Source: an uncultured Saprospiraceae bacterium
GTDB lineage: Bacteria; Bacteroidota; Bacteroidia; Chitinophagales; Saprospiraceae
Assembly: GCA_937928575.1 (NCBI GenBank)
Contig: CALFWW010000001.1
Coordinates: 2,281 to 66,280 of the forward strand
Direction of reading: 5' to 3'
Length of the DNA: 64,000 nucleotides
Below the pieces are notes generated by a model that had not been told where the DNA came from, did no database searches, and saw only the letters and a program-made list of their open reading frames with translations. This document shows positions 5,879 to 55,838 of this stretch, in pieces. The position numbers and the translations under genes are program-made. Numbering within the stretch: position 1 is the stretch's first letter; every line of letters begins with the position of its first letter.

Positions 5879-7195
5879 ATGCCATATTTATTTACCTCCG
5901 AATCTGTTTCTGAAGGACATCCTGATAAAGTAGCAGATCAAATTTCGGATGCGTTAGTTGATCACTTTTTGGCTTTCGACAAAAGTTCAAAAATTGCTTG
6001 TGAAACTCTTGTTACAACTGGACAGGTAGTATTAGCAGGTGAAGTGAAAACTAAAACTTATTTAGATGTTCAACAGATTGCAAGAGATGTAATCAACAGA
6101 ATTGGATATACTAAATCAGAGTATATGTTTGAAGCAAACTCTTGTGGTGTATTTTCATCTATTCACGAACAGTCTCCTGATATCAACCAAGGTGTTGAAA
6201 GAAAGAAAAAAGAAAATCAAGGAGCAGGTGATCAAGGAATGATGTTCGGTTATGCAACTAATGAAACAGGTAACTATATGCCATTGGCTTTGGACCTTTC
6301 TCACAAAATTTTAGAGATATTAGCTGATATCAGAAAAGCTGGAAAGCAAATGACTTACTTGAGACCAGATTCTAAATCTCAGGTAACGATCGAATATGCA
6401 GACAATGGTAAGCCGATGAGAATTGACTCTATCGTAGTGAGTACACAACATGATGATTTCGCTGCAGATGCTAAGATGCTCGCAAAAATTAAGAAAGACG
6501 TTATTAATATCGTTATCCCTCGCGTTAAGAAACAATGCAAATCTTCTATTCAAAAATTATTCACCAACAAGATTACTTATCACGTAAATCCTACTGGTAA
6601 ATTTGTAATCGGTGGACCACACGGTGATACTGGTTTGACAGGAAGAAAAATTATCGTTGATACGTACGGTGGAAAAGGCGCACACGGTGGTGGTGCATTC
6701 TCAGGAAAAGATCCATCAAAAGTAGATAGATCTGCAGCATATGCAACAAGACATATCGCAAAGAATATGGTTGCGGCTGGAGTTTGTGATGAAATTTTGG
6801 TACAAGTATCTTATGCAATTGGTGTTGCAAAACCAACCAACATTTATGTCAATACCTACGGTACGGCCAAAGTAGATATGAATGATAGCAAGATTGCAGA
6901 CTTGATTTACAAAATCTTTGACATGCGTCCTTATGCAATCGAAACAAGATTGAAGTTGAGAAACCCAATCTATAGCGAAACTGCTGCTTACGGTCACATG
7001 GGTAGAACGCCTAAGAAAAAAACTGTAACGTTTGTTGATGGTTCTGGTAAGAAAAAAGCGATGAAAGTTGAAACGTTTACTTGGGAGAAATTAGACTATG
7101 TAGATAAAGTAAAGAAAGCTTTCAAAATTGGTAAAAATGGAGTTGCCAAGAAAAAAGCAGCTAAAAGAAAGTCAATATCAAGAAAAAAGAAGTAA
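5879..7195 (+). CDS. metK: S-adenosylmethionine synthetase with a polybasic C-terminal tail
   Basis: 438 aa with the motifs [30 protein letters not shown] and [19 protein letters not shown]. The tail is lysine-rich: [15 protein letters not shown]. Confidence 0.95.
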
Positions 7196-7235
7196 TTGCT
7201 TCAACTATTTTGATGTCGCACTATAAAGAAACGAA

Positions 7236-7271
7236 GGGAGTAATTTTTTAATCGAAATTACTCCCTTTTTC
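7236..7271 (+). terminator. Rho-independent terminator after metK
   Basis: gggagtaatt (7236-7245) pairs with aattactccc (7256-7265) and is followed by ttttt. Confidence 0.75.
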
Positions 7272-7483
7272 TTTGAATTTGACAACACTCCATCCATCCA
7301 TTTGTTATACAATTTATAAACTATAATCGCGAACATTTTCTTACAGAATACAGATTATAGATTAAAATTTGTATTGAATTGTTAAGTGCGAAAAGCGTAA
7401 TTTAGCACAAACATTATTATGCTTTTCCAAAGTGTAATATTAGTAAAACATATTTCATTAATTTATCATAATTGGTTTACATA

Positions 7484-10363
7484 ATGGCCCAATCTAAAGC
7501 GTACGATAACTTCCAAAAACGACACATCGGAATCAATGAAGGCGAACTGGATTTGATGTTGAAAGCTATAAAAGCAAAATCACTTGACAAGCTGATCGAT
7601 GAAACAATTCCATCAACCATCCGATTAAAAAAGAAATTAAATCTACCGGAAGGAATTTCTGAAAATGAATTTTTGAGAGAATTGAAACAAACCGCTTCTC
7701 TAAACAAAGTCTTCCGTACTTACATCGGTCAAGGATATTATGGAACAATCACACCCTCTGTAATCCTTCGTAATATTTTTCAAAATCCAGGATGGTATAC
7801 CCAATACACGCCTTATCAAGCGGAGATTGCACAAGGGCGTTTGGAAGCGTTATTGAATTTCCAAACCATGTTGAGCGACCTGACGGGATTGCCAATTGCA
7901 AATGCATCTTTATTGGATGAAGGGACTGCAGCAGCTGAAGCAATGGCGATGTTTTACAGTATCAAAAACAAGCGCAACAAAGGAGACATGCAAAATGAAT
8001 TCTTTGTAGATGACAATGTGTTTCCGCAAACTTTAGAAGTCATCAAAACAAGGGCAATTCCTTTAGATATCAAAGTGATTGTTGGCGATTGGAAAAAATT
8101 TAAACCAAGTGATAATACTTTCGGTGTCTTTTTACAGTATCCTTGTGCCAATGGAGAAGTGGAGGATTATGGAAAATTTGTCAAGAAATTAGCCGCTAAA
8201 GAAATCTATACAACTGTCGGTGCAGATATTTTATCCCTTGCGATTTTGACACCACCGGGAGAGTGGGGAGCAGATGCGGTAGTAGGAAATACGCAACGAT
8301 TAGGTGTGCCAATGGGCTATGGTGGTCCACATGCTGCTTACTTCACTTGTAAAGAGGACTACAAAAGACAAATTCCAGGTCGAATCATTGGCGTCTCTAT
8401 TGATTCTAACAATCGTCCTGCATTAAGAATGGCATTGCAAACACGTGAGCAACATATCCGCCGTGAAAAAGCAACTTCCAATATCTGTACGGCGCAGGCT
8501 TTGTTAGCGATCATGGCAGGCATGTATGCGACCTATCATGGACCTCAAGGTATTCAGGAAATTGCCCAAAAGATATATTCCGCAACTAGTTTGTTAGCAG
8601 ATTCATTGGAAGCATTAGGATATAAGTTAGAAAACAAATATCACTTCGATACAATTGCGGTTAATTTAAAAACAGACCAAAAAGCAAAAATTAAGAAATT
8701 GGCAGTTGCTTCAAAAATAAATTTCTGGTATACAAAAAGTGGTGTACAAATTTCATTAGATGAGACGGTCAACAAGACTGACTTGATGGACATCATTACC
8801 ATCTTTGCAACTGCCAAACGTAAAAAGAAAATTCAACTCAAAAAAGCACCAAGTGGCATCCGATTACCAAAATCATTGAAAAGAACGTCTCCTTATTTGA
8901 CACATGAGACTTTCAATGCTTACCATACAGAATCTAAAATGATGCGGTATATTAAGCGTTTGGAAAATCGCGATTTGTCATTGACACATTCTATGATCCC
9001 ATTGGGTTCTTGCACCATGAAATTGAATGCGGCGACGCAATTGATTCCGGTAAGTTGGAATGAATTTGCCAATCTGCACCCATTTGTTCCTGCAAATCAA
9101 GCTAAAGGATACCATCAAATTTTTGAAGAATTGGAAATGTATTTGTCAGAAATTACTGGTTTCGACGCATGTTCATTACAACCCAATTCAGGTGCACAAG
9201 GAGAGTACACCGGTTTGATGACCATCAGAGCTTACCATGAAGATAGAGGAGATCATCATAGAAATATCGCTTTAATCCCACAATCTGCACACGGAACGAA
9301 TCCCGCAAGTGCAGTGATGGTCGGGATGAAAGTAGTAGTCGTTAAATGCGATGGGGATGGAAATATTGATGTTGCTGATTTGAAAACAAAGGCAAAAGAA
9401 CATAAGGAGAATTTGTCTGCACTCATGGTGACTTATCCATCGACACATGGTGTATTCGAAGTGAAGATAAAAGAGATTTGTAAAATCATACATCAAAATG
9501 GAGGACTCGTCTATATGGATGGTGCCAATATGAATGCGCAAGTTGGGTTGACAAGTCCGGGTGCGATTGATGCGGATGTTTGTCACTTAAATTTACACAA
9601 AACTTTCAGTATTCCTCATGGAGGAGGAGGACCAGGAATGGGACCGATTTGTGTCAATAAAAAACTAGCTCCATATCTTCCAGGTCATATTCACCAAAAG
9701 AATTCGAAGAAAAATATATCAGCCGTCTCAGCTGCAGCTTATGGAAGCGCAAGTATATTGTTAATTTCATACGCATACATCAAGATGCTCGGTCAGGAAG
9801 GCGTAGTTGAATCTACTCGATATGCGATACTAAATGCAAATTATATCATGGCAAGATTGGAAGGGCCTTACCAAGTATTGTACACAGGTGCCAAAGGAAG
9901 ATCTGCTCATGAATTAATTATTGATTTAAGACCTTTCAAAGCAATAGCCAGTGCAGAAGATGTAGCAAAGCGATTAATTGACTATGGATTTCATGCACCA
10001 ACTTTATCATTTCCAGTAGCAGGCACCATCATGATTGAACCTACAGAAAGTGAAAGTTTGGATGAGTTGGATCGTTTCTGCGATGCAATGTTGGCCATCA
10101 GAAATGAAATTGATGAAATTGCCAATGGGGGAGATCCTGAAAACAACGTGTTACATAACGCACCGCACACGATGCAGTTGGTAGCAGCAGATGAATGGAA
10201 TATGCCGTATTCAAGAGAGAAGGCAGCATTTCCACTTCCATATTTGCGACAAGGTTATAAATTTTGGCCACACGTAGGTCGTGTCAATAATGCACATGGA
10301 GATCGTACTTTGATTTGTACTTGTCCTCCTATGGAAATGTATGAAGAAATGGTGGAGGCATAA
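7484..10363 (+). CDS. gcvP: Glycine dehydrogenase (decarboxylating), glycine cleavage P protein
   Basis: About 959 aa, the single-chain P-protein length. Conserved stretches include [24 protein letters not shown] and [19 protein letters not shown] (the PLP-lysine region). The ATG at 7484 is preferred over the TTG at 7472. Confidence 0.95.
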
Positions 10364-11622: not shown

Positions 11623-13305
11623 CTACCCACCCATCTGTGACTTCGCCCATTGAATATAAAACTTCACTTCCGCTTCAAGTGCACGTAATGTTTTAAGTTT
11701 CGCTTTTTCAGCCTCAGCTTTTCTGAATTTATTTTTCTTTTCGCGGATCACTTTAAATTTTGCCTCATAATCTTCTTTTTCTTTTTCGGTCAGTAGCTCC
11801 ATTGCTTCGTACTTTTCTCTTATACGTTGATTTGCAATAGATTTTAGTTGATTGACAGAATCTCGTTCTGCTTTTGGTAATTCTTTTATTTTATAATAAT
11901 CGTATTGCTTTGATAATTCCTTGAACTCTTTACTCCTTGCTTTTATAACTGCATCCGTCATTCCATTTTTTTCATCACGTTCTTTTCTTAATTGGGATAG
12001 TTGTTGATCAAGTTCTGGTGTGGAAATGGAATACTGTGAACGGATAGTCATTTGATGATCTCTCATGCTAATTGGTGCGATAAATTTCGTGCCTTTCTTG
12101 TTATTTAGGTCTATTAGACGAGTTTCATCCAAAGAGATATACAATTTATTTTTGAATTCATCAAGGATATGGGTATAATCAAACCATTTTTCAATGGGAT
12201 AGGAATTCATGATTTCTAGTTTCAAGGTGATATAATCTGGATTTTTGTTTAAAATACCCTGACCGCTACTATATTGTCGAAAAGCATTGAGTGTTAGAAA
12301 CTTTTCAAGAAATTCCTCATTGGATTGTATAGATTTTAAATTTTCAAATACAGCAATTACTTTTTCTCTTAGTGGTTTGTTGTGTTCATTTGGTTTTGTG
12401 AATCGATGCCTATATCTTGTTAAATAACACTTCAGTTGATTGTCTTCAAATCGTTGATCGTGGTATCTACTAACATCGGAATCGAAATCATCTTCTTTGT
12501 TGAGACTGTCTCTTATTTGAATCATTTCCAATTCAAAATATAGATCTTCAAATGCAGATTTACTGTTTTCATTGGCTGCTAAGTTTTGTATTTTTTCCAA
12601 GTATTTTTCTTTTGCGTTTTCTGACAAATACTTTGTTGCTCTTTTGATATACTTTTCTTTATCATCTACAAATCTTTGAAAGGCGTTATCTCTATTTGTA
12701 ATTAGACGATTCATGTCATGTTTAAACTTGTCAAGTAAACTTAGCGCTTGATATTCTTGAAACGGTATATTATTGTGATTATTTAAATGAAAAGACGTGT
12801 CCATATTGTAATAATCAATCAATAAAAATCCAATCTCATCTGCTTCACAATAGCCTTGCAAGTAAACACTAATTTCTTCATCTTCATACCAAACATTTTC
12901 TTTCAACTCGATTCCAGATTCTTTAAATGCTTTACGGATAGTATGCAACGCTTCTTCACTTCTGAGTCTTTCTGGCATCCCCGTACCAAAACTTGATGGT
13001 GCATAGGGAACTCTTGCATTTTCCAAAGGAAAAGGATTATAAAGGGTGTCTTGATTGACCTGAGCCGAAACACTCTGTCCACTAAATAACATCAGACTAG
13101 CAATCCCACCAGTTGATGCCCAATTGATAAAACGTTGAGTGAAAGGGTAGGGACGTGTCTCCGGATAAAGCAATGGATTTTTATCGGTATATGACGGATA
13201 TTTGGCTTGGTAAATCCGTTTTGCTGGTTGCACTTTTAGTGGTTTCTTTTTCATGATTCGTTGTTTTAGGGTTGCAAGTGTTTTTACATTTTCGATCTTG
13301 CCCAT
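11623..13305 (-). CDS. Hypothetical exported protein, paralogue B of the radical SAM operon (unknown family)
   Basis: 560-aa ORF; the alternative start at 13254 gives MKKKPLKV. It has a hydrophobic signal/anchor segment (GGIASLMLFSGQSVSAQ). It is a clear paralogue of 13284-14822 and is K/E-rich. Confidence 0.75.
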   Translation of the reverse strand: MGKIENVKTLATLKQRIMKKKPLKVQPAKRIYQAKYPSYTDKNPLLYPETRPYPFTQRFINWASTGGIASLMLFSGQSVSAQVNQDTLYNPFPLENARVPYAPSSFGTGMPERLRSEEALHTIRKAFKESGIELKENVWYEDEEISVYLQGYCEADEIGFLLIDYYNMDTSFHLNNHNNIPFQEYQALSLLDKFKHDMNRLITNRDNAFQRFVDDKEKYIKRATKYLSENAKEKYLEKIQNLAANENSKSAFEDLYFELEMIQIRDSLNKEDDFDSDVSRYHDQRFEDNQLKCYLTRYRHRFTKPNEHNKPLREKVIAVFENLKSIQSNEEFLEKFLTLNAFRQYSSGQGILNKNPDYITLKLEIMNSYPIEKWFDYTHILDEFKNKLYISLDETRLIDLNNKKGTKFIAPISMRDHQMTIRSQYSISTPELDQQLSQLRKERDEKNGMTDAVIKARSKEFKELSKQYDYYKIKELPKAERDSVNQLKSIANQRIREKYEAMELLTEKEKEDYEAKFKVIREKKNKFRKAEAEKAKLKTLRALEAEVKFYIQWAKSQMGG

Positions 13306-14822
13306 TGGATGTACATTTTGACATCCTCCTTAAGTCTATTGATGGTTGCTTCCTTTATATAGGCTGATTCTGTTTTTCGTTTAGCATGTATGGCATCATA
13401 AGTCGCTTTGAGATTTTGCTTGAATAGAATTTCTTCCTCATCAGACATTAAGTTCATGTCTTTGTATTTTTTCAGAATAACTTGTTCTTCATCAAAGATT
13501 AAAGTTTTAATAGAATCAATTTCTGTTTTTGGAAGATATTGTTTGTCAGTATGTTGACGGAATAATTTTTTAATCTCTTTGTCTTTTTCTTTCCCAGCAG
13601 TATATTTTACCATGCTTTTTGTTTCAAATTCCTTACTTAAAGAATCTCTTTTTTCATTCAATAATTTGTACTCATTTTGTAATGCTATATATTCTTTAGA
13701 ATTAGGTGATAGCCAGATTGCCAACCGATTTTCTCTCATTTCGAGTGGTAAAATAAAATTTGTATTTGTATTGTTTGATTGGTCACTAGACAGGTTGTTT
13801 TCAAGAATGCGATTCGTTTCTTCAAATTGAAGTAGGTATCTTTCTTTAAACTGATCTAATGTGTGCACATGGTTGAGCCAATATTCGATTGAATATGTAT
13901 TCATGATTTCAAGTTTCAATTCATTATAAGCAGGTACTTGATTCATGGGTGCCCAATTGCTATTATAGTTTAAGAAAGTATTCAAAATCATGTATTGCTC
14001 AATGAATTTTTCATCAGCATTGATTGTGTGTAAGTTTTCAAAAATTGCATTGATTTTTTCAGAAAAAGCAGTAGGTTGAATGACACTTGAAAACATTCGA
14101 TAAGTTGATTGAAGGATGGCCAATTTTTCAGTCGAATTTTCAAGTCGATTGTTCACGTGTCTTTTAAGATCATATCTCAAGCCATTTTGTTTTGGGAATG
14201 GCAACACCTGGTCTAATTTATATTGTAAAAAGTAATTTTCAAAAAGGGGTTTGATTTCAGGAAAGCGTTCTAGATATTTAATTTTTTCCGCGAATTTTTT
14301 TCCTGCTGTGGTACGTTGTCTTTTCAATTCTTTGTGGTATGCTGTTTTGTCTTCCAAAAACAAAAGAAATGCTTCACCTCTCTTTTTTTCAAATTGCTTA
14401 ATTTTATTGGTAATATCCGATTGCCAATCCACAATGCTTGAATCGTATTGCTTGCTATGATTATTTTTGGAGTAGAAAAAAGACTTTCCCTTTTTGTTGT
14501 GTTCAATAAGTAAAAAACCAATTTTTTCATTTTTATTATAGCCATCTAAAATCACGTTAACATCTTCAGTCTCATACCAATAATTTCCTGTTAGAATTAT
14601 GCCCGATGCTTTAAATGCATCATGAATAGCGTTCAATACTTCTTCTTTGGTTAAGTAATCTGGAATACCTAATCCACATCTGCTGACAGGCTCACCAATT
14701 TTTTTGATTGTTAGTTGAAATGTATTATACAAGGAGTCTTGTTGCGCTTGCCCAGAAATATCCAATGTTCCTAACAACATAAAGACAAGAACGTTAAAGT
14801 AGTTGCATAACTTCTTTCGCAT
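13284..14822 (-). CDS. Hypothetical exported protein, paralogue A of the radical SAM operon (unknown family)
   Basis: 512 aa with an N-terminal signal-like segment (YFNVLVFMLLGTLDISGQAQ). Its start lies 2 nt after the stop of the radical SAM gene. It is paralogous to 11623-13305. Confidence 0.8.
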   Translation of the reverse strand: MRKKLCNYFNVLVFMLLGTLDISGQAQQDSLYNTFQLTIKKIGEPVSRCGLGIPDYLTKEEVLNAIHDAFKASGIILTGNYWYETEDVNVILDGYNKNEKIGFLLIEHNKKGKSFFYSKNNHSKQYDSSIVDWQSDITNKIKQFEKKRGEAFLLFLEDKTAYHKELKRQRTTAGKKFAEKIKYLERFPEIKPLFENYFLQYKLDQVLPFPKQNGLRYDLKRHVNNRLENSTEKLAILQSTYRMFSSVIQPTAFSEKINAIFENLHTINADEKFIEQYMILNTFLNYNSNWAPMNQVPAYNELKLEIMNTYSIEYWLNHVHTLDQFKERYLLQFEETNRILENNLSSDQSNNTNTNFILPLEMRENRLAIWLSPNSKEYIALQNEYKLLNEKRDSLSKEFETKSMVKYTAGKEKDKEIKKLFRQHTDKQYLPKTEIDSIKTLIFDEEQVILKKYKDMNLMSDEEEILFKQNLKATYDAIHAKRKTESAYIKEATINRLKEDVKMYIQWARSKM

Positions 14823-14824
14823 AA

Positions 14825-15961
14825 TTACAACGTAATTTCAAAATGAGAAATAACCGCATAGTCCTCATTATAATGTTTATGAATGAATGTATTATTCCTT
14901 TTCTTCCATAGTTTGTCAGCCGCCTTATCAACGATTTCTATCAAAATCTTCTCATTATAACAAACAATTGGCGAAGCTTTATCAATTCGTCCAGTACTCA
15001 TGAAATTGATGCAAGAACACCATTTGGAACACCGAGCTTCCAGTTTGCAACCATTACATTCTGGTTTTTCCTTTTCGGATTGTTGGTATAAATGATTTTG
15101 ACAAGCTGCATCAAATCCTTCACGCACATGACCGATCATAAATTCAGGAATCGCTTTTGTTTTAACAAACTGAATACATGGATACAATTCCCCATTTGGA
15201 GCAATAGAAAATTGTTTAGTACCGATTTGGCAACGTTCACTGGCGGCAATGGGTTTGTAAGTTCTGGAGCGAATTCTTTCATCAAAAAAGCTAAGATAGA
15301 AACGCTCATTTTTCAACATTTTATCAACGTACCATTTAGATAGTTTTTGATAAGACTTTTTCAAAATAGCAAAATGTTCCAATTGCCAATCTGCTGAATA
15401 GTCCAATGTTGTCGTGATATATCGAAAACCTAAATTGAATATATAATCCACCGACTCACATAATTGATAAGCAGTGTCAGGAGACAATACACAAGTGACA
15501 TTGGTTGCTGGATTGTGACACAACATCATATCTGCTGCCTTTGCTACTTTGTGTGAAGTTGGTTTTCCACCTGCATCTACACGATGCGTGTCATGTATGT
15601 CCGGATGTCCATCTACACTTAAAGATACAAATACATTGTTATCATAAAGCTGCTTAATTAAGTCTTCACTCAATAAAGTCCCGTTGGTACTCATTCGATA
15701 GGAGACATCGATATTTTCTTTTTTGGAAAATTCACCAATAATATAGAATATCTTTTCTTTTTCAATCAGTGGTTCACCACCAAAAAAGGTAATATGCAGC
15801 CGATTGGTCTCTAATGTTTTTAATTCATTTTCGATGAAAGCAATAGAATCGTCGATGGTTTTATAGGTCATTGCAACAGGCAATTTTTCTCCTGTATAAC
15901 AATAAGTACATCTTAAATTGCAATGATGGGTCAAATGAAAAGTAGCAGAGAGTGAGTGCAT
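14825..15961 (-). CDS. Radical SAM enzyme with C-terminal SPASM domain (peptide/protein maturase type)
   Basis: 378 aa. C14-x3-C18-x2-C21 (HHCNLRCTYCY) and GGEPL are present. The SPASM pattern is exact: CQIGTKQFSIAPNGELYPC (C-x12-G-x4-C) followed by CNGCKLEARCSKWC (C-x2-C-x5-C-x3-C). Confidence 0.9.
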   Translation of the reverse strand: MHSLSATFHLTHHCNLRCTYCYTGEKLPVAMTYKTIDDSIAFIENELKTLETNRLHITFFGGEPLIEKEKIFYIIGEFSKKENIDVSYRMSTNGTLLSEDLIKQLYDNNVFVSLSVDGHPDIHDTHRVDAGGKPTSHKVAKAADMMLCHNPATNVTCVLSPDTAYQLCESVDYIFNLGFRYITTTLDYSADWQLEHFAILKKSYQKLSKWYVDKMLKNERFYLSFFDERIRSRTYKPIAASERCQIGTKQFSIAPNGELYPCIQFVKTKAIPEFMIGHVREGFDAACQNHLYQQSEKEKPECNGCKLEARCSKWCSCINFMSTGRIDKASPIVCYNEKILIEIVDKAADKLWKKRNNTFIHKHYNEDYAVISHFEITL

Positions 15962-16248: not shown

Positions 16249-16698
16249 ATGGCAAAGCACATTTTTTATTCTGTTTTATTTTTAGTAATCAGCGTATTAG
16301 CGGTTTCATGTGGTGATGATGATGCAACACCTGATGATGATCATCATTCTGATTTAGCGTATAAAGTACATATTCATTCTCCATCTACTGATGATAAGAA
16401 TGTAGGAGATATGATACACATTCATACTGATTTTGAAAGTGAATCTGGTGAAGCAGTTCATCACATCAAAGTTAGAATATACAATGCTGTGGATAATAGT
16501 ATTGAAATTTACAATCAACCGGATGTAGCGCATGTCCATGAAACTGACGGAATGCTTGAATTCCATGATGATTTTATGTTGACAAATGCAAATGGCGTTG
16601 ATGCCCATACGGATTGGATACTAGAAGCAAAAGTTTGGGGACATGAAGCTGAGGAAGGAGAAGTGATTCAAACAATTCAATTTCATGTACATCCATAA
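16249..16698 (+). CDS. Histidine-rich lipoprotein (putative metal-binding)
   Basis: The ATG at 16249 gives MAKHIFYSVLFLVISVLAVSCGDDD, a signal peptide plus a lipobox Cys. By my count the mature chain of about 130 aa has about 15 His. The motif HxH recurs: VHIHS, IHIHT, AHVHE, FHVHP. Confidence 0.75.
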   Translation: MAKHIFYSVLFLVISVLAVSCGDDDATPDDDHHSDLAYKVHIHSPSTDDKNVGDMIHIHTDFESESGEAVHHIKVRIYNAVDNSIEIYNQPDVAHVHETDGMLEFHDDFMLTNANGVDAHTDWILEAKVWGHEAEEGEVIQTIQFHVHP

Positions 16699-16822: not shown

Positions 16823-16869
16823 ATCCAAATAGTCAGGATGTCTGTTCAGCATTGTCTGTTCTACAAAAA
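16823..16869. repeat. Locus-specific palindrome-containing repeat, copy a (upstream of the CPBP protease gene)
   Basis: Sequence atccaaatagtcaggatgtctgttcagcattgtctgttctacaaaaa. The inverted pair gtagaacaga (16794-16803) and tctgttctac (16855-16864) brackets it. Confidence 0.6.
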
Positions 16870-16878
16870 ACAAAAGAG

Positions 16879-17628
16879 ATGAAAAATCAAAAATTAAAAG
16901 TAGGACTCTTAATTTTTTTAGCAGGTTCAATTGGTGCATTATCTTTGTTGGCTTTTGATTTGACTTCTATAAAATTTATCGCAGACAACCTCCCAGTATC
17001 TGTGACAAAATGGGAATTGAAATTAGTCTCATTAATAAATCCTTTAATGATGGTCACTGTATTCACAGTATTAGGAACTGTTTTGTATGAGAAGGTTGGA
17101 TATCCATTACCTGTTTTTGAAAGTATTGTGGATCGGAATACAGAGGTAAATTTAAAGCAGATTTTAATAAAGGGAATAATTGGAGGAATGATAGCTGGGG
17201 TAGGTATTGTTATATCAACTGTGATTGCTTTTCAATTTTTACCGCAAAAATATTTACTGGTGCTCGATCAATTTCAACTACCGCTCATTACTAAGCTGTT
17301 ATATGGTGGTATTGCAGAAGAAGTGATCATGCGTTTTGGGCTCCAAACTTTTTTAACTTGGATATTATTTAAAGTTTTTAAAAATCTAAATTTATCAGTT
17401 ATTCTAGCGATCCTCATTTCAGCAATTCTTTTTGCTCTAGGACATTTCCCAATTCTGTATTTACTGTTTCCTGAGCCTTCTTCAACTCTTTTAGTTTATA
17501 TCATTGTTGGAAATTCAATTGGAGGAATAGTTTTCGGATATTTATATTGGAAAATAGGATTGAGTGCTGCAATGATTGCGCATATGGTTACACATATTGT
17601 TATGATACTTCTCTCAAGTGCAGTGTAG
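16879..17628 (+). CDS. CPBP family (CAAX/Abi-type) intramembrane glutamic protease
   Basis: Polytopic membrane protein with the motifs EEVIMRFG (EExxxR), FALGH (FxxxH) and a C-terminal HMVTH. The ATG at 16879 is preferred over the TTG at 16852. Confidence 0.8.
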   Translation: MKNQKLKVGLLIFLAGSIGALSLLAFDLTSIKFIADNLPVSVTKWELKLVSLINPLMMVTVFTVLGTVLYEKVGYPLPVFESIVDRNTEVNLKQILIKGIIGGMIAGVGIVISTVIAFQFLPQKYLLVLDQFQLPLITKLLYGGIAEEVIMRFGLQTFLTWILFKVFKNLNLSVILAILISAILFALGHFPILYLLFPEPSSTLLVYIIVGNSIGGIVFGYLYWKIGLSAAMIAHMVTHIVMILLSSAV

Positions 17629-49810: not shown

Positions 49811-52800
49811 TTACTCTTCTATGATAAAGCTCGTAGAAGCTTTTTCTTCTACAACATAAATATTGTAAATACCTGATCGAAGTCCTGAAATATCTAATTG
49901 GATTAAATTTTCAATATTCGGTTCTACTGCTACGTTCGTTTTTCTAACAATTCGTCCGATCATGTCAGTAATTTCAATCTGGACTTTTGATTGATTAGAA
50001 GCAAGAAGTACGTTGATCATGCTTTGAGTATTTCCAATCGGATTAGGATAAGCAGTTAGTTTGATTTCCTTATCACAATCAGCTCTTTGCGTGAGTACTG
50101 TTGAGTATTCAAAAGTACCATCGATGTTTATCAACTTCAATCGATAGTAAGTTTGCTCGGAGATTGTCAAATCTATGAATTGATACTGTTGAGTGGTAGT
50201 AGAATTTACTCGTCCTTCCACTGTACCAATTGTTTCAAAATCTACTCTGTTGATACTGCTCTGTATTTCGTAATGGCTAAAGTTTTCTTCACTTTCCGAA
50301 ATCCAATCCAACACAACTTCGCAATTTTCCTTCAAAGTGGAAGTAAATGAAGTTAATGCGGTAGGTAGGGCTATTAAGACTTTATAATCTTCAACTTCAC
50401 CATTGGTTCTTCCGCCTCCAAAATCTCCGATCGCGAAAGGATCATCATCTGCTCTTAGTCGAATATTGACACATTCTTCACCAGTTGTATTTGGAGTAGT
50501 AATATCGACAGAAGTAATTACCGGGCTAAATGTCGCCTGAGATCCTGAGTAGAAATCATCGTAAACACCATCATCATTCCAATCAATCCACAATCCATAG
50601 AATACTAAATCTGCAGACGTTGAATTAACGGTGATGTCTACACTGTAAGTGGTGTTTGGTGTTCCATTAATTGGGAATTCTCCAGCACCATTTCCAATAA
50701 CAAGTGCATCGTCACTCAAGTCACCAATGGCTCCTGGATCGAATAATTGGGTGGATTCGAATGAAGTACTTGTCCCCAACCAAACATTCGTTGTTCCATC
50801 TAACGTACCATTGTTGTCCGTGTCCGTAAGTGCTCTGTGATAAGCAACAGGATATGCTAATGGTGCATCTCCATAATCTCTTTTGACATCTAAGATCGTA
50901 ATCATTAAAGTCGCTTCATCACATGCTTGAGGCGTCCCATCATCGCATTTCGTATAAGGCACATTCACGTTTCCTACGAATCCTGGCGCCGGTGCAAACT
51001 CATAAGTACCATCTGGATTCATAGTCATTGTTCCGGCATTTGCTACGAAGACCCCCATGTCATTGAAACCTCCAACGGTAGTAGGGGTACCCGGTGTAGC
51101 TGGTGAATCACCTGCTCCATCTCCATCTGTGTCTACTAAAAATTCAGTGACCATTTCAGTATTCATTTCACCGTCATTATCATTTGCCAATACATCACCT
51201 GGAATCATGACACCAACGTCTGTTATACTGGCGTCGTCATTTGCGAATGTATTGTTGTCCGTTGCTTTCACGACATCAATTACTAATTGTGTGTCGTCAC
51301 AGATTGCTGGTAAGCCTGCATCGCAAATCGTATATGGTTGTGTCACCATACCTGTAAATCCTGGTGTTGGAATGAATTCATAAGTTCCATCAGGATTTAA
51401 TGTCAATGTACCAGCGTTTGAAACTGGGTTGCCATTTTCATCAACACCTGATACGGTCATAGCCGTTAATGGTGTGGTCACAGATGGGCTGATTGCATCT
51501 GGATCTAAATCATTTGACAATACATTTCCGGTTCCTGTTTCTCCTTCCGATACGGTGTTGGCATCTGGATTCGCGATAACCATTGGTTGCTCAGGATCAG
51601 TTGCTGGGAATACTTCAATGTATAATGTTGTCGTTTCGCATAAAGCTGGTACACCATCATCACAAACTTCATAATTAAATTCAGTTTCTCCAACAAATCC
51701 TGGTGCTGGTGTAAATACATAAGTTCCATCTGGATTCAATACGACTGTTCCTTCAGATGCTGGCATGCCACCATCCGCACCAACGGGTGTAAAAGTCAAA
51801 TTATTACCTTCCGCATCTGGGTCGTTTGTTGCGACACTACTTGTTACAGGAGTATCAAGTGGCGTGTTATTAAAATCTTCTTCAGCAGTAATCGTATTGA
51901 CTGATAAGGTAGTCAAATATAAAGTAGCTTCTTCACAAGCTGGTGGTGTTTGATCATCGCAAACTTCGTAAACTACAACCTCTGTTCCTACAAAACCAGG
52001 AGCAGCCATATAATCATAACTTCCATCTGGATTGATGGTCAAAGTACCACCACTTGGTAAAGTTGCTGATGTTGACGGGGTAATCGGGTTTCCTGCAGCA
52101 TCTGTTGCTCCCGTAACCATTTGCGGATCGCCCTCTGGATCATTATCGTTAGCTAGTACATTCCCTGCCTGCGGTTCATCTGCTGGTCCGCTGTTTGCAT
52201 CATCATTTCCGTAAGTCGCATTGCCATTATCTGGTTCAATCGTGATGGTCAAAGTTGCATCATCAGAAAGTCCATTAGGATCTTCAATTGTATAATCTAT
52301 TGCTACTTCTCCTTTAAACGTTGGTTCAGGATCAAAGTCATAAGTTCCATCTGCCTGCATCTTCATGGTTCCTGCAATGACTATGTTGCCTTCGCAATCT
52401 GTTCCGTAAATCGGTACCGTAAGCCCTAAAGGCAAAGGTTCATCAACAATTCCATCGCCATCTGTATCTGCCAGAACAGAAGTTACCATTATTGGATCTC
52501 CATCAGGATCAGTATCATTTGGATCCATTACAGTACCCATAACAGCTACATCTATTTCTGTCGTGTTCGTATCATCATTTGCTACTGGAGGATCGTTTTG
52601 TGTTGGGTTGTTTGCTGGAATCACATCGATATCCAAAGTTGCAGTATCTGTATGACCATTTGAATCTACTACGACGTAATCTACTGGTACATTTCCAGTA
52701 TAGCCCGATTCAGGATCAAAAGTATAAGTACCATCAGGCATCATTGCAATCGTGCCTGCTAACATTCCATTTACATCATAGATTGGTGTTGGTGTTCCAT

Positions 52801-55552
52801 CTAAAGGAATTGTAACTGGGTTACCCATAGCATCCAAACCTGTTGCACTTTGTACAGTTTGAGTATCACCTTGGTCGTCAGTATCATTGGTTAGGATGTT
52901 CCCATCAACAGGGGTATCCATTGGCGTTTGATTAATATCATTTTCTGCTGTTGTGGTACATTCATCTGCAATGATGGTTTCCAAACATGCCATCGCAACA
53001 TAATTTTCATTGCTGTCAAAAATATTTCCGTCTGCATCTTGAAATCCCATAACTGGGGTATCAAATTGAATTGTAGGAGGTACATTGTCATCTGCAGAAG
53101 TTGCTGGAAACATTAACACATCTGTTGCAGCTGAAATCGCTCCAAAGCCTCCTCCAAAATCGATCTCCGGCGTGGTGTTAAATCCTATTGCAATATCTGT
53201 TGTATATAATCTTACTCTTAAAAATTGTCCTGCACATCCTGTTGTTACCTGTCCACATGGAATGGTATAGTATGATTCTTCAACACCTTCATCACCTTGA
53301 CTGGCACCATCCAATAACTCTGCTGTTGCGCACATATTTGTCATATCAGTTCCAACTAAAAATAATGAAGCATCAGCGGCTGCGCCTCCTAGTTTGAATC
53401 CTATTTCTGTAACATATTCCGGTACAACTATCCAAAAATCTGATTGGATCAACTCCATATCAGGATTACTTCCAGTAGCGCAAGCTGTATTAGGATTTAA
53501 TTCAATTGCCATATTACTTACTTTCGCTCCGCTGGCAGGTAAGTCGGATACGATTCCTTCAAGCGGAGTTCCTATTGCGGAAGGTGCCATTGGGTAACCA
53601 TAGGCATCTGTATCACAGAATAACTGATTAATGAATCCCTGATTGGCTGCGGTAACAGTAGGCAATGGGTTTACGGTAGCTATACAATCCGTCCAATATT
53701 GTAAGTAAACGGAGTCTGAAGAAATCGGTACTTGATAAGTAATCGATTCTGCTGGACAGGTATAGCTTGGATTGAAAGGCACTAATGGCGCACTTGGACC
53801 TGCCATGGAGATTGGACATCCGTCTTGACCACATCCAAACATAAAGCCACGGTTGGCAGCAGCTTCAGTATTGTCAACCAACAAACAATTTGGTGTTGCT
53901 GTAAATGGCGCTGTAGTTCCATCCATTGGGGTGCCGGCAGTACCAATATTTCCAACAGAAACTGCGCAAGACCCGGAACCGTAAGTTATCACGACACCAT
54001 CGTCACAAGGTTCTAATGGGTCAGTTGGTTCATAACCCGCATCTGGGATTAATAAACCTGACGCAGGATCTATCGTTCCTCCATTTGGTCCAAAACACTC
54101 TGTTATATTATCGAATCCACCACCATCACAATCTTCAGTTGCTAAAGGGCTTGATGGATCCTCAGCAAGGATTGCACAAAGGTCCATCCCACCAGCGATA
54201 ACCAGATTACAATCCAATGGTGGATCATCATTTGAAGCTAATGGATCTGTCCCGCCTGAGCATTCTAAATCATTTGGAATGCCACCAAGATCACAATCTA
54301 AATCACCTAAAGCAGCATTGCTTGCAATATCGGCACACAAATCTAAAGTAGAATCAAGTATATAATCACAGCAAGCATCACTGTTTGGGATGATGGTAAC
54401 ATCACATGCAAGGGACACTAAATTTCCAGCCATATCAAATACGTCTCCTCCCAATGAAAACCCAGTTTCCAATGGTCCTAAAGTTACGGATGGTGGAACA
54501 TTATCGTTGGCTGACGCAGCTGGAATGATGGCGATACCTGTTGCTGAAGCTATCGGTTCGAATCCAAAACCAACATCAATCATTGGAGCTACATTAAATG
54601 ATTGAGCCATATCTGTTACATAAATTCTTACTCGTATAGTTTTTAAACTACATTCAGGATTTGCAATTGTATTTCCAGTTCCTACTGGATAATAACCTTC
54701 AGCAACTCCTATTAGGTCATCGCAAGCTCCTGTTAAACAAAAAGCTTCTGCTACCGTGCACATACTCGTTAAATCTGAACCTACCATAAAACGGGCAGCA
54801 TCGGCCGCTCCTCCTCCAATTTGAAAACCAATATCAGTTACATAATCAGGAAGTGCCAACCAAAAATCAGCTTGGATCAGCTCCATTTCTCCTGCAATAT
54901 TTGTCTCTCCACTTGCTGCTAATAAAGCATTAAGTGGAGTTGCACTGCCAGGTAATGCAGCGATCCCAGTCAAAGGTGTTCCATTTCCTCCATTTCCAGG
55001 AATTGGTAATCCATAGGTAGCGTCTTCTTCACAGAAAAGCTGATTTATGAATCCTTGGCGGCTTGCACTTAGTGTCGGAAAATCTGCGAATCCAGCACTT
55101 GCTCCTATTGTAGAAAGTCCATTATTCCAATAAGAAACAAAGGTTTCATTTACTGCAGGAACTATTCTATAAGTTGCCAAATCGGCTGGGCATGAAAAAG
55201 TAGGTATGACGGGAGGTGTAATATCAGTTGCAGCGACAACACCGCAAGATGGGGCATTATCACAACCTGAAAGAAAGCCCTTATTGGTTAAGGCATCAGC
55301 ATTTGTCATGGGCAAACAGATTGCATTATTGAAGTTTCCTGTTCCTTCAGAATATGCAGGATCACATGCCCCATTTTGTCCATGAGCTTGAAATGTTATT
55401 GCTAGGAAAAAGAACGCGAATAAAGCAGTCTGCAATGAGCATTTTTTTAACCTCAATGAGGTGGTATTACTCAATGCTTGTTTCGATTTTGGAATCACCG
55501 AGAATCGTTGATCAAAATCTGCATTTGTCATTTGTGGATTAATTTTTAACAT
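49811..55552 (-). CDS. Giant secreted adhesin-like protein with cadherin/Ig-like tandem repeats, a GEVED-type motif and a T9SS C-terminal sorting domain
   Basis: 1913 aa with a signal-like N-terminus. It carries two copies of an N-terminal module of roughly 450-490 aa. There are at least 6 repeats of the type (A/G)NDD..T....V.GNVL.ND.DPEGD...Y.VCDD..P..C..ATL. NGEVEDYKV is present. The C-terminus is LTAYPNPIGN...GIYNIYVV...FIIEE. Confidence 0.85.
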   Translation of the reverse strand: MLKINPQMTNADFDQRFSVIPKSKQALSNTTSLRLKKCSLQTALFAFFFLAITFQAHGQNGACDPAYSEGTGNFNNAICLPMTNADALTNKGFLSGCDNAPSCGVVAATDITPPVIPTFSCPADLATYRIVPAVNETFVSYWNNGLSTIGASAGFADFPTLSASRQGFINQLFCEEDATYGLPIPGNGGNGTPLTGIAALPGSATPLNALLAASGETNIAGEMELIQADFWLALPDYVTDIGFQIGGGAADAARFMVGSDLTSMCTVAEAFCLTGACDDLIGVAEGYYPVGTGNTIANPECSLKTIRVRIYVTDMAQSFNVAPMIDVGFGFEPIASATGIAIIPAASANDNVPPSVTLGPLETGFSLGGDVFDMAGNLVSLACDVTIIPNSDACCDYILDSTLDLCADIASNAALGDLDCDLGGIPNDLECSGGTDPLASNDDPPLDCNLVIAGGMDLCAILAEDPSSPLATEDCDGGGFDNITECFGPNGGTIDPASGLLIPDAGYEPTDPLEPCDDGVVITYGSGSCAVSVGNIGTAGTPMDGTTAPFTATPNCLLVDNTEAAANRGFMFGCGQDGCPISMAGPSAPLVPFNPSYTCPAESITYQVPISSDSVYLQYWTDCIATVNPLPTVTAANQGFINQLFCDTDAYGYPMAPSAIGTPLEGIVSDLPASGAKVSNMAIELNPNTACATGSNPDMELIQSDFWIVVPEYVTEIGFKLGGAAADASLFLVGTDMTNMCATAELLDGASQGDEGVEESYYTIPCGQVTTGCAGQFLRVRLYTTDIAIGFNTTPEIDFGGGFGAISAATDVLMFPATSADDNVPPTIQFDTPVMGFQDADGNIFDSNENYVAMACLETIIADECTTTAENDINQTPMDTPVDGNILTNDTDDQGDTQTVQSATGLDAMGNPVTIPLDGTPTPIYDVNGMLAGTIAMMPDGTYTFDPESGYTGNVPVDYVVVDSNGHTDTATLDIDVIPANNPTQNDPPVANDDTNTTEIDVAVMGTVMDPNDTDPDGDPIMVTSVLADTDGDGIVDEPLPLGLTVPIYGTDCEGNIVIAGTMKMQADGTYDFDPEPTFKGEVAIDYTIEDPNGLSDDATLTITIEPDNGNATYGNDDANSGPADEPQAGNVLANDNDPEGDPQMVTGATDAAGNPITPSTSATLPSGGTLTINPDGSYDYMAAPGFVGTEVVVYEVCDDQTPPACEEATLYLTTLSVNTITAEEDFNNTPLDTPVTSSVATNDPDAEGNNLTFTPVGADGGMPASEGTVVLNPDGTYVFTPAPGFVGETEFNYEVCDDGVPALCETTTLYIEVFPATDPEQPMVIANPDANTVSEGETGTGNVLSNDLDPDAISPSVTTPLTAMTVSGVDENGNPVSNAGTLTLNPDGTYEFIPTPGFTGMVTQPYTICDAGLPAICDDTQLVIDVVKATDNNTFANDDASITDVGVMIPGDVLANDNDGEMNTEMVTEFLVDTDGDGAGDSPATPGTPTTVGGFNDMGVFVANAGTMTMNPDGTYEFAPAPGFVGNVNVPYTKCDDGTPQACDEATLMITILDVKRDYGDAPLAYPVAYHRALTDTDNNGTLDGTTNVWLGTSTSFESTQLFDPGAIGDLSDDALVIGNGAGEFPINGTPNTTYSVDITVNSTSADLVFYGLWIDWNDDGVYDDFYSGSQATFSPVITSVDITTPNTTGEECVNIRLRADDDPFAIGDFGGGRTNGEVEDYKVLIALPTALTSFTSTLKENCEVVLDWISESEENFSHYEIQSSINRVDFETIGTVEGRVNSTTTQQYQFIDLTISEQTYYRLKLINIDGTFEYSTVLTQRADCDKEIKLTAYPNPIGNTQSMINVLLASNQSKVQIEITDMIGRIVRKTNVAVEPNIENLIQLDISGLRSGIYNIYVVEEKASTSFIIEE

Positions 55553-55838
55553 AAGTATTTGATTTGCGAGTTCTATATATTATTTGTTTGAAGTGAGTTA
55601 TAATGAAAAAGCCAGATTATAGCTTGGGTGAAAACTTACTTGTAATCAATCTCTAAAAGAGTTTTAAAGAAAGGCGTTATTCTAGCAATGAGGTTGAAAA
55701 TTCAACCTTTGAAAACGTATCAAATATCAATCCAATTTTTAATATGTATCTAGCAGATAGGTAGGATTTTATATATATAGACCTTGTTGGTAAAAATCTG
55801 CTTACGGAACACAGATAGGATGAGCGGCGAAAAAGAAA

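Follow-up and report, generated by a model that had tools for sequence, protein, structure and literature searches.

A radical SAM/SPASM enzyme and its unannotated exported partner form a candidate protein-maturation cassette found in about six bacterial phyla

Within a 64,000-nucleotide stretch of contig CALFWW010000001.1 from an uncultured Saprospiraceae bacterium (hereafter the window), a radical S-adenosylmethionine (SAM) enzyme with a SPASM domain is encoded next to two large paralogous proteins, termed B512 and A543, that have the features of exported proteins. Comparison with related loci showed that the conserved unit is a two-gene cassette, consisting of the enzyme and one partner of 250-550 amino acids (aa), that occurs in about six phyla (Bacteroidota, Planctomycetota, Verrucomicrobiota, Lentisphaerota, Sumerlaeota, and Myxococcota). 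On balance, and with due caution, we consider it probable that this is a protein-maturation cassette in which the enzyme would modify the partner precursor before export, with a conserved N-terminal tail of the precursor serving as leader and an [F/Y]GTG loop as the likely target. An earlier reading of the window's letters (the original prediction) had offered either protein-level modification of the two paralogues or an undescribed maturase/partner system; the latter is supported by the adjacency of enzyme and partner at 47 of 48 orthologous loci over several phyla. Literature searches returned nothing specific on this pairing. The three genes are as follows.

14825..15961, minus strand: radical SAM/SPASM enzyme, 378 aa (Pfam Radical_SAM and SPASM above cut-off)
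13284..14822, minus strand: paralogue B512, 512 aa, a leaderless member of the partner family (33% identity to A543; family profile match)
11623..13254, minus strand: paralogue A543, 543 aa, the canonical partner of the enzyme (440 bits on the family profile over its full length)

The enzyme-partner cassette and its distribution

All three open reading frames (ORFs) were found closely packed on the minus strand where the original prediction had placed them, with 2 nucleotides (nt) separating the enzyme stop from the ATG of B512. The third ORF had been read as a 560-aa protein that overlaps B512 by 22 nt. This is indeed its longest form (ATG at 13305), but the N-termini of A543 orthologues uniformly read M-[KQ]-K-K-x-L-x-V, which makes the ATG at 13254 almost certainly the true start, giving 543 aa and a 29-nt gap to B512. 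The paralogy of the two large proteins was far beyond chance (BLASTP, 33% identity, 513 columns, E = 7e-74), and the shared motifs quoted earlier are all present in the alignment.

The pairing was assessed by an enzyme-based scan of one genome per GTDB species, which yielded 78 loci, with hidden Markov models (HMMs) of both families used for scoring. A partner-family gene directly adjoined the enzyme gene in 47 of the 48 non-redundant loci with an orthologous enzyme; the gaps between the two were mostly between -20 and +20 nt, and the flanking genes were all different. For enzyme homologues at 81%, 63%, 52%, 47%, and 45% identity, an unannotated protein of 312-544 aa was encoded beside the enzyme each time while the other neighbors differed, and these proteins proved to be homologues of the window paralogues. 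At the sole orthologous enzyme locus lacking a nearby partner (locus L035 of the scan), an unrelated 304-aa protein follows the enzyme.

The hosts in the window's own clade belong to Saprospiraceae and Lewinellaceae (73-84% identity). Other hosts are Haliscomenobacter, Kordia (where the partner lies upstream of the enzyme), Planctomycetota including Novipirellula sp. SH528, Verrucomicrobiota including Haloferula rosea, Victivallaceae (Lentisphaerota), Sumerlaeota, and one Myxococcales metagenome-assembled genome (MAG). Conservation of the adjacency within Bacteroidota, which the original prediction had proposed to check, thus extends beyond that phylum. For distant Myxococcota enzymes (about 30% identical) a shortened but recognizable partner follows in 18 of 27 loci; these cassettes retain the tail (L-x-V-K-P-V…R-P-E-F-P-T-R), the hydrophobic segment, and the alpha/beta domain described below and have lost the C-terminal motif.

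The partner is usually present in a single copy per genome. Tandem arrays of two or three copies were seen at loci L001, L024-L028, L038, L054, and L056, and several Saprospiraceae carry two. The suggestion that two proteins of roughly 500 aa are the only fixed companions of the enzyme accordingly needs amending, as the fixed companion is one protein of 250-550 aa, mostly single-copy. Within the window cassette there is no sulfatase, ATP-grasp, peptidase, or exporter gene, as had been noted, and the window holds no credible small precursor ORF. Among the 48 loci, no small ORF (15-100 aa) within 600 nt of the cassette was conserved beyond one genus, and none of the cassettes examined contains a sulfatase gene. 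The arrangement differs in this respect from a classical system for peptides made on ribosomes and modified after translation (RiPPs), in which a short precursor gene lies beside the enzyme, and a hidden small precursor gene was rejected as an explanation.

Three loci are of separate note. At L056 (Candidatus Sumerlaeota MAG, 6237-8998) one enzyme gene is followed by three tandem partners with a diverged tail (…P-R-F-P…) and the C-terminal motif Y-I-E-Y-L-Q-R-Q-G-I, in which Tyr replaces an otherwise invariant Trp. The enzyme of L022, labeled Halioglobus sp., is 60% identical to the Saprospiraceae-type enzyme of the window and is accompanied by a long, Saprospiraceae-type partner, and L047, labeled Akkermansia muciniphila, has a partner of the short kind usual in Planctomycetota and Verrucomicrobiota. 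The taxon labels of L022 and L047 are doubtful and likely reflect MAG mis-binning or mislabeling.

Architecture of the partner family

A word-indexed protein search with B512 recovered only itself and one homologue, and a full HMM search was needed to reveal the family; an exhaustive profile search of 1.84 billion proteins gave 207 partner cluster representatives at E ≤ 1e-3. The view that the paralogues lie outside known families was upheld. Neither B512 nor A543 matched a Pfam or NCBIfam model even at E = 1, no Pfam model covers any of 70 family members scanned, a sequence search of the PDB gave no match, and none of the sources checked has a name for the family. In an alignment of 128 full-length members, five conserved elements follow one another: the tail; a hydrophobic segment; the loop stretch, N-P-F…G-L-P…[F/Y/C]89-G-T-G-x-P-x-R-L; a small alpha/beta domain, completed further on by the strand F-[IV]-A-x-I-S; and a C-terminal helix ending L-E-x-x-V-R-x-Y-I-x-W-A-[KR]-S-Q. 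A helical middle of variable length accounts for the range of partner sizes (250-550 aa). These elements map to the window as follows.

13138..13254, minus strand: A543 tail, residues 1-39, basic and Tyr/Pro-rich (MKKKPLKVQPAKRIYQAKYPSYTDKNPLLYPETRPYPFT), the proposed leader/docking element (conservation)
13063..13137, minus strand: A543 h-region and probable signal-peptidase site (…LMLFSGQSVSA/Q), residues 40-64 (hydrophobicity scan)
12964..13038, minus strand: A543 residues 73-97, N-P-F…G/R-L/V-P-Y…S-F89-G-T91-G-M-P-E-R-L, the candidate modification site (conservation)
14652..14726, minus strand: B512 residues 33-57, NTF…R-C49-G-L-G-I-P-D-Y-L, the diverged loop (alignments)
11626..11688, minus strand: end of the A543 C-terminal helix, residues 523-543, L-x-x-L-E-x-x-V-K-x-Y-I-Q-W-A-K-S-Q (conservation and model)

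The tail of canonical partners spans about 40 residues and follows the pattern …P-[KR]-Y-P-S…P-Y-P-F, with three aromatic-Pro motifs and conserved residues L6, V8, P10, P17, Y19, P20, S21, D24, P27, P31, P35, Y36, P37, and F38. Among 97 tail-bearing members, Y19 and P20 were present in all 97, P27 in 93, P37 in 92, V8 in 91, and P10 in 88. The segment ahead of the hydrophobic stretch has a median length of 43 residues and a net charge of +5 in such proteins, and in 39 of 99 tail-bearing members the hydrophobic stretch is closed by a lipobox-like Cys (…L-T-G-C, …A-S-C, and similar), a residue that is 12-fold enriched at this point relative to the mature part. Other members, including A543 (…SVSA/Q), have sites of the A-x-A type. 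The partner thus carries the basic n-region, the h-region, and the A-x-A or lipobox Cys that characterize a Sec or lipoprotein signal peptide. Because the tail is basic and stands ahead of a hydrophobic segment ending in a lipobox-like Cys, it belongs to the signal peptide as a conserved n-region extension, which would stay cytoplasmic and be lost on cleavage as the domain is exported.

In members without a tail, B512 among them, the signal peptide is short and ordinary. The partners adjacent to an enzyme were essentially all tail-bearing, B512 being the sole clear exception; the tail pattern also missed the three Sumerlaeota partners of L056, whose P-R-F-P tail has diverged. When loci were collected from the partner side, the tail-bearing ones (L001 and L090) had the enzyme upstream, and the tail-less ones (L088, L089, L091, and L092) had no enzyme on their contigs, two of which are shorter than 2 kb. 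One metagenome scan from the partner side yielded a single locus.

Loss of the tail is coupled to a change in the loop. The stretch of A543 comprising residues 73-97 is the most conserved of the mature protein, and every mature-domain column was compared between 97 tail-bearing and 26 tail-less members (123 in total). Only columns 89, 91, and 92 lost conservation specifically in the absence of the tail, and these top three columns lie close together in one short loop; the fold-core columns were conserved alike in both groups. Position 89 was Phe or Tyr in 99% of the tail-bearing proteins and Cys in 15 of the 26 tail-less ones (p = 1.6e-14), Thr at position 91 fell from 99% to 58% (p = 5e-8), and Gly at position 92 fell from 100% to 69% (p = 1.5e-6). 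In a rough neighbor-joining tree constructed without those columns, the Cys89 forms were scattered among tail-bearing relatives, in keeping with about 13 separate changes rather than with one clade. An internal disulfide was rejected as the reason for Cys89, as this is the lone Cys in several such proteins, mature B512 among them.

These features set the two window paralogues apart, although they had been taken for equals. A543 is canonical, with the tail and F-G-T-G at the loop. B512 has a signal peptide at residues 1-24, scores 248.6 bits on the family HMM, and enters at profile position 52, so that it has no tail; it carries C-G-L-G in place of [F/Y]-G-T-G, with Cys at family position 89, a form found elsewhere away from the enzyme. 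(The codon for this position lies at 12988-12990 of the window in A543 and at 14676-14678 in B512.) Lacking the tail and having C-G-L-G at the loop, B512 is probably not a substrate of the enzyme.

The AlphaFold2 model of A543 (mean predicted local distance difference test, pLDDT, 89.6; predicted template modeling score, pTM, 0.80) bore out the expectation of a compact N-terminal domain followed by helices, and a 250-aa family member was modeled with a pLDDT of 88.1. In a search with the full 543-aa model, Foldseek found nothing but coiled-coil noise in the PDB. The short model matched Vsr, homing endonucleases, and DUF559 in BFVD (E = 2e-4 to 1e-3, probability >= 0.98); against the PDB its best match was 3r3p (E = 0.087), with none reaching E = 0.001 and low TM-scores. 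The partner may therefore be described, from a fold match that is consistent but weak, as a restriction-endonuclease-like alpha/beta core with variable helices. The Foldseek matches of the core point consistently to the PD-(D/E)xK fold (Vsr/DUF559/I-Bth0305I-type), but the partner differs from it in being exported and in reading I-G-[Y/F]-V, with an invariant Gly, on the strand expected to hold (D/E)-x-K (placement from the alignment). The catalytic (D/E)-x-K appears absent, and nuclease activity is therefore unlikely. The C-terminal motif is conserved in tail-bearing and tail-less members and sits in a helix with pLDDT values of 95-98; it is therefore structural and not enzyme-linked. In the AlphaFold2 model of the family member P0246 (mf6163a8bc0cc), tail residues 1-30 had a pLDDT of about 80, as compared with 65-77 in the A543 model. 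This is high for a free segment, and the tail may have been modeled as packed against the domain.

The enzyme and its relatives

The motifs noted originally are all present in the enzyme, and the Cys residues were invariant in 26 orthologues. Besides C14-x3-C18-x2-C21 and GGEPL (residues 61-65), it contains C244-x12-G257-x4-C262 and C302-x2-C305-x5-C311-x3-C315, plus C317 and C334. The proposed HMM check assigned it to the radical SAM superfamily (Pfam PF04055, 60 bits vs a cut-off of 29.5) and the SPASM subfamily (PF13186, 28.1 bits vs 21.5, residues 244-306). The two cluster-binding regions are as follows.

15899..15922, minus strand: CX3CX2C motif for the radical SAM [4Fe-4S] cluster (C14, C18, C21; from sequence, invariant in 26 orthologues)
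14960..15232, minus strand: SPASM auxiliary-cluster region (C244, C262, C302, C305, C311, C315, C317, C334, all eight invariant; alignment and Pfam)

There were 530 homologues of the enzyme at E < 1e-20. Its best NCBIfam match was the PapB ranthipeptide maturase (NF047865, 199.6 bits, residues 5-328), for which the cut-off of 340 was not reached, followed by the CXXX-repeat family, QhpD (126 bits), SCIFF, DynA, and other peptide maturases. The models for the anaerobic sulfatase-maturating enzyme (anSME) were likewise not reached (TIGR03942, 105.8 bits vs 349; NF010321, 90.3 vs 441), and the enzyme does not fall in the sulfatase-maturase clade; a place squarely within that clade, with sulfatase genes elsewhere, was what the original prediction had named as counting against itself. 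Matches to triceptide synthases were confined to the N-terminal radical SAM core (YhhB, 84.7 bits vs 445; AmcB, 70.7 vs 425; ChlB, 85.9 bits, residues 12-167 only). The closest solved structure was CteB (5wgg, 180.6 bits), in an alignment that starts at CteB residue 98, past its RiPP recognition element (RRE), and anSME was second. The enzyme itself has no N-terminal PqqD-like RRE, its cluster motif beginning at residue 14. Judged by these matches, it is a full SPASM maturase without an RRE, of anSME-like build, and outside every named family. The families that it resembles (PapB, CXXX-repeat, QhpD, SCIFF/CteB, DynA, and anSME) are all peptide or protein maturases. A PADLOC scan for defense systems returned only generic viperin-core matches for the enzyme and none for the partners, and a defense role was set aside.

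Several known systems share parts of this arrangement. PapB and CteB, the best sequence matches, likewise continue from a radical SAM core into a complete SPASM domain bearing two auxiliary clusters, but the PapB score lies far under the cut-off, the N-terminal RRE of CteB is missing here, and both enzymes make Cys thioethers in short Cys-rich peptides, unlike the situation for a partner of 250-550 aa that is exported and often lacks Cys in its mature part. The anSME (4k36) has a similar length (about 370-380 aa), a SPASM domain, and no RRE, and it acts on whole proteins, modifying a full-length, signal peptide-bearing sulfatase in the cytoplasm ahead of its export; the same logic is proposed for the cassette. 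The partner, however, is not a sulfatase and reads G-x-P-x-R with no C/S-x-P-x-R, and the present enzyme is locked to one partner with a dedicated leader-like tail. QhpD is a radical SAM/SPASM enzyme that cross-links QhpC, the periplasm-bound gamma subunit of quinohemoprotein amine dehydrogenase, which has an unusual N-terminal leader. It makes Cys-to-Asp/Glu thioethers in a small substrate and needs a dedicated protease and exporter, and none of these traits occurs in the cassette described here. The QhpD/QhpC system is the subject of PMC7876137.

Bufferins and related MNIO-modified precursors, some of them long, have Sec or lipoprotein signal peptides in place of classical leaders and are modified before export, and the authors gave preliminary evidence that the enzyme complex recognizes the signal peptide as part of its target (PMC12452194). 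That system differs in using an MNIO/DUF692 enzyme with a DUF2063 partner and Cys targets, and no conserved 40-residue n-region extension has been described for it. The triceptide synthases YhhB, ChlB, and HtkB join an aromatic ring to the C-beta two residues on, within an aromatic-X-X motif (PMC11499958). The invariant [F/Y]89-G90-T91 of the partner formally fits that motif, but the known substrates of these enzymes are short peptides, and the resemblance between the enzymes stops at the core. In its logic the cassette is closest to anSME/sulfatases and QhpD/QhpC and is also near the bufferins, from all of which it is set apart by its partner family, the absence of Cys, and the 40-residue n-region extension.

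Proposed maturation and competing readings

From the conserved pairing, the tail, and its coupling to the loop, we infer that the partner would be the substrate, the tail the recognition element, and the loop the site. The cytoplasmic enzyme would act on the newly made precursor of its neighbor (A543 in the window) before export. Working like a RiPP leader, the tail would dock the precursor on the RRE-less enzyme, in place of an RRE-leader contact, and would delay export until modification is done. Speculatively, the contact might involve a family-specific C-terminal motif of the enzyme, F-x-H-K-H-Y-N. The likeliest site would be the [F/Y]89-G-T91-G loop, which lies about 25 residues from the start of the mature protein, and the precursor would be modified while unfolded. 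The precursor would then pass through the Sec or lipoprotein pathway, the signal peptide and tail would be cut off, and the mature protein would fold.

The sequences place limits on the chemistry. No column of the mature partner has Cys in more than 3% of tail-bearing members; of the 97 such proteins, 45 are free of Cys in the mature part and 87 in the tail. Thioether formation was therefore rejected despite the resemblance to PapB and CteB, and on these counts the modification cannot depend on Cys. A darobactin- or streptide-like Trp-Lys crosslink in the C-terminal Y-I-x-W-A-K was discarded, given that this motif lies in a confidently modeled long helix, is kept equally in tail-less members, has Tyr for Trp in Sumerlaeota, and is absent from the Myxococcota cassettes. 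Also rejected were a PqqA-like Glu-x3-Tyr crosslink in the tail (E32…Y36), as position 32 is not conserved; a mycofactocin-like change at a C-terminal Tyr, as the C-terminal residue is variable; and a sulfatase-like C/S-x-P/A-x-R motif, as the partner reads G92-x-P94-x-R96 with Gly at the target position. An aromatic-to-C-beta crosslink on F/Y-G-T fits formally, by analogy with the triceptides, and is put forward as a candidate only, the enzyme being outside the triceptide synthase families.

Several observations weigh against the proposed maturation. At L035 (Saprospiraceae MAG JADLDL010000296.1, 2273-8424) no partner gene lies within 5 kb of the enzyme. Among the Myxococcota and Sumerlaeota variants, the most distant ones do not clearly retain the loop. 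The conservation of the tail, with Y19 and P20 absolute, is so strong that the tail itself could be the target. Cleavage of the signal peptide was read from sequence patterns rather than from a dedicated predictor, and the partner-side sample consists of six loci, two of its tail-less contigs being very short. Finally, L044 (Planctomycetia MAG CAZWCX010000021.1, 4146-7028) counts both ways. Enzyme and partner share a single ORF there, uninterrupted by a stop codon, and the protein runs from the enzyme through a linker of about 40 residues to the tail, the hydrophobic segment, and the domain, which adds to the case for the pairing and fits a cytoplasmic tail. This single case from one MAG could be natural or an artifact of assembly; an enzyme joined to its own substrate would turn over only once, and the arrangement fits tethering at least as well.

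Indeed, instead of being a substrate, the partner could serve as a tether at the membrane, an escort, or a regulator. Its cytoplasmic tail would keep the enzyme against the inner membrane face while the enzyme works on another target, such as an unlinked protein, a lipid, or a small molecule, and the outer domain might sense or receive the product. We regard this as unlikely. In its favor, the hydrophobic segment of the L044 protein would place the enzyme on the cytoplasmic side, and anchors are fused to enzymes more often than substrates are; the tail is conserved in the manner of a docking motif, and the partner, which has no conserved Cys, gives no clue to a modification chemistry. A tether of this kind would not last, however, as cleavage at the lipobox-like Cys of about 40% of tail-bearing members, or at the A-x-A site of many others, would sever the tail. 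Nor does tethering explain why the loop changes when the tail is lost, and all of the related enzymes modify peptides or proteins.

It is quite improbable that the product is the tail, which the enzyme would cross-link or otherwise alter, and that the modified signal-peptide fragment, once freed by signal peptidase, serves as a bioactive or signaling peptide with the large protein as a mere carrier. Pheromones derived from lipoprotein signal peptides do exist in Enterococcus, and here the tail holds the most invariant residues of the precursor along with its three aromatic-Pro motifs, tracks the enzyme most reliably (even in the distant Myxococcota cassettes), and is modeled in P0246 with a confidence unusual for a free tail. 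RiPP cores, however, usually vary and their leaders are conserved, so that the tail is leader-like in this respect; the good conservation and confident fold of the mature domain mark it as more than a carrier; and the coupled change at positions 89-92 would be left unexplained.

A reading in which B512 and A543 are equivalent substrates, both modified at the protein level, has very little likelihood in our view. Its appeal comes from the position of B512 between the enzyme and A543, with its ATG immediately after the enzyme stop, and from the frequency of tandem partners elsewhere. In the other tandem arrays, however, every copy is tail-bearing (diverged in L056), B512 departs from them at both tail and loop, and the other tail-less, Cys89-type members have no enzyme on their contigs. 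That the enzyme is a divergent anSME serving sulfatases encoded elsewhere, with an incidental neighbor, is effectively refuted: although the size and RRE-less layout are shared and many host lineages are rich in sulfatases (Pirellulales, Lentimonas, and Saprospiraceae), the anSME scores fall far short, the cassettes lack sulfatase genes, and adjacency to one non-sulfatase family despite wholly different flanks is not incidental.

Other features of the window were recorded in passing. Divergently upstream of the cassette lie genes for a His/Asp-rich putative lipoprotein without a Pfam match (16249-16698, plus strand; …LAVSCGDDD…HHSD…HIH…HVH…) and for a CPBP/Rce1-like intramembrane protease (16852-17628, plus strand). 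In the related locus L001 a CPBP protease gene also lies downstream of the cassette, at about 2.3 kb, and more distant loci lack it. Unrelated to the cassette is a 1922-aa protein (49814-55579, minus strand) with Big_9 and cadherin-like repeats, a GEVED domain, and a type IX secretion C-terminal sorting domain; its gene lies in the most GC-rich part of the window (0.41-0.42 vs about 0.36). Rfam detected no riboswitch or other known RNA in the window, and a promoter/terminator scan of it performed no better than on shuffled sequence.

To our knowledge, radical SAM/SPASM enzymes have been studied mostly as modifiers of small peptides, with few known to act on whole proteins (anSME on sulfatases and QhpD on QhpC). 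If the proposed maturation is correct, the cassette would be a widespread whole-protein case, in which the substrate is an exported protein or lipoprotein of 250-550 aa from an unannotated family with no Cys to cross-link. The recognition element would seemingly be merged with the signal peptide, which raises the question of how modification stays ahead of Sec export. The comparative data point to a candidate site in the tryptic peptide VPYAPSSFGTGMPER, a candidate leader in residues 1-39, and B512 as a built-in negative control. More tentatively, and with the odds as we see them against it, the cassette may represent a new class of radical SAM protein modification, with a leader in the n-region of a signal peptide, a Cys-independent change (an aromatic-to-C-beta cyclophane on the F/Y-G-T loop being one candidate) in a folded, exported protein of an unannotated family, a spread over about six phyla, and the repeated placement of Cys after enzyme loss. 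This recurrent replacement of Phe or Tyr by Cys hints at the role that the modification would have.

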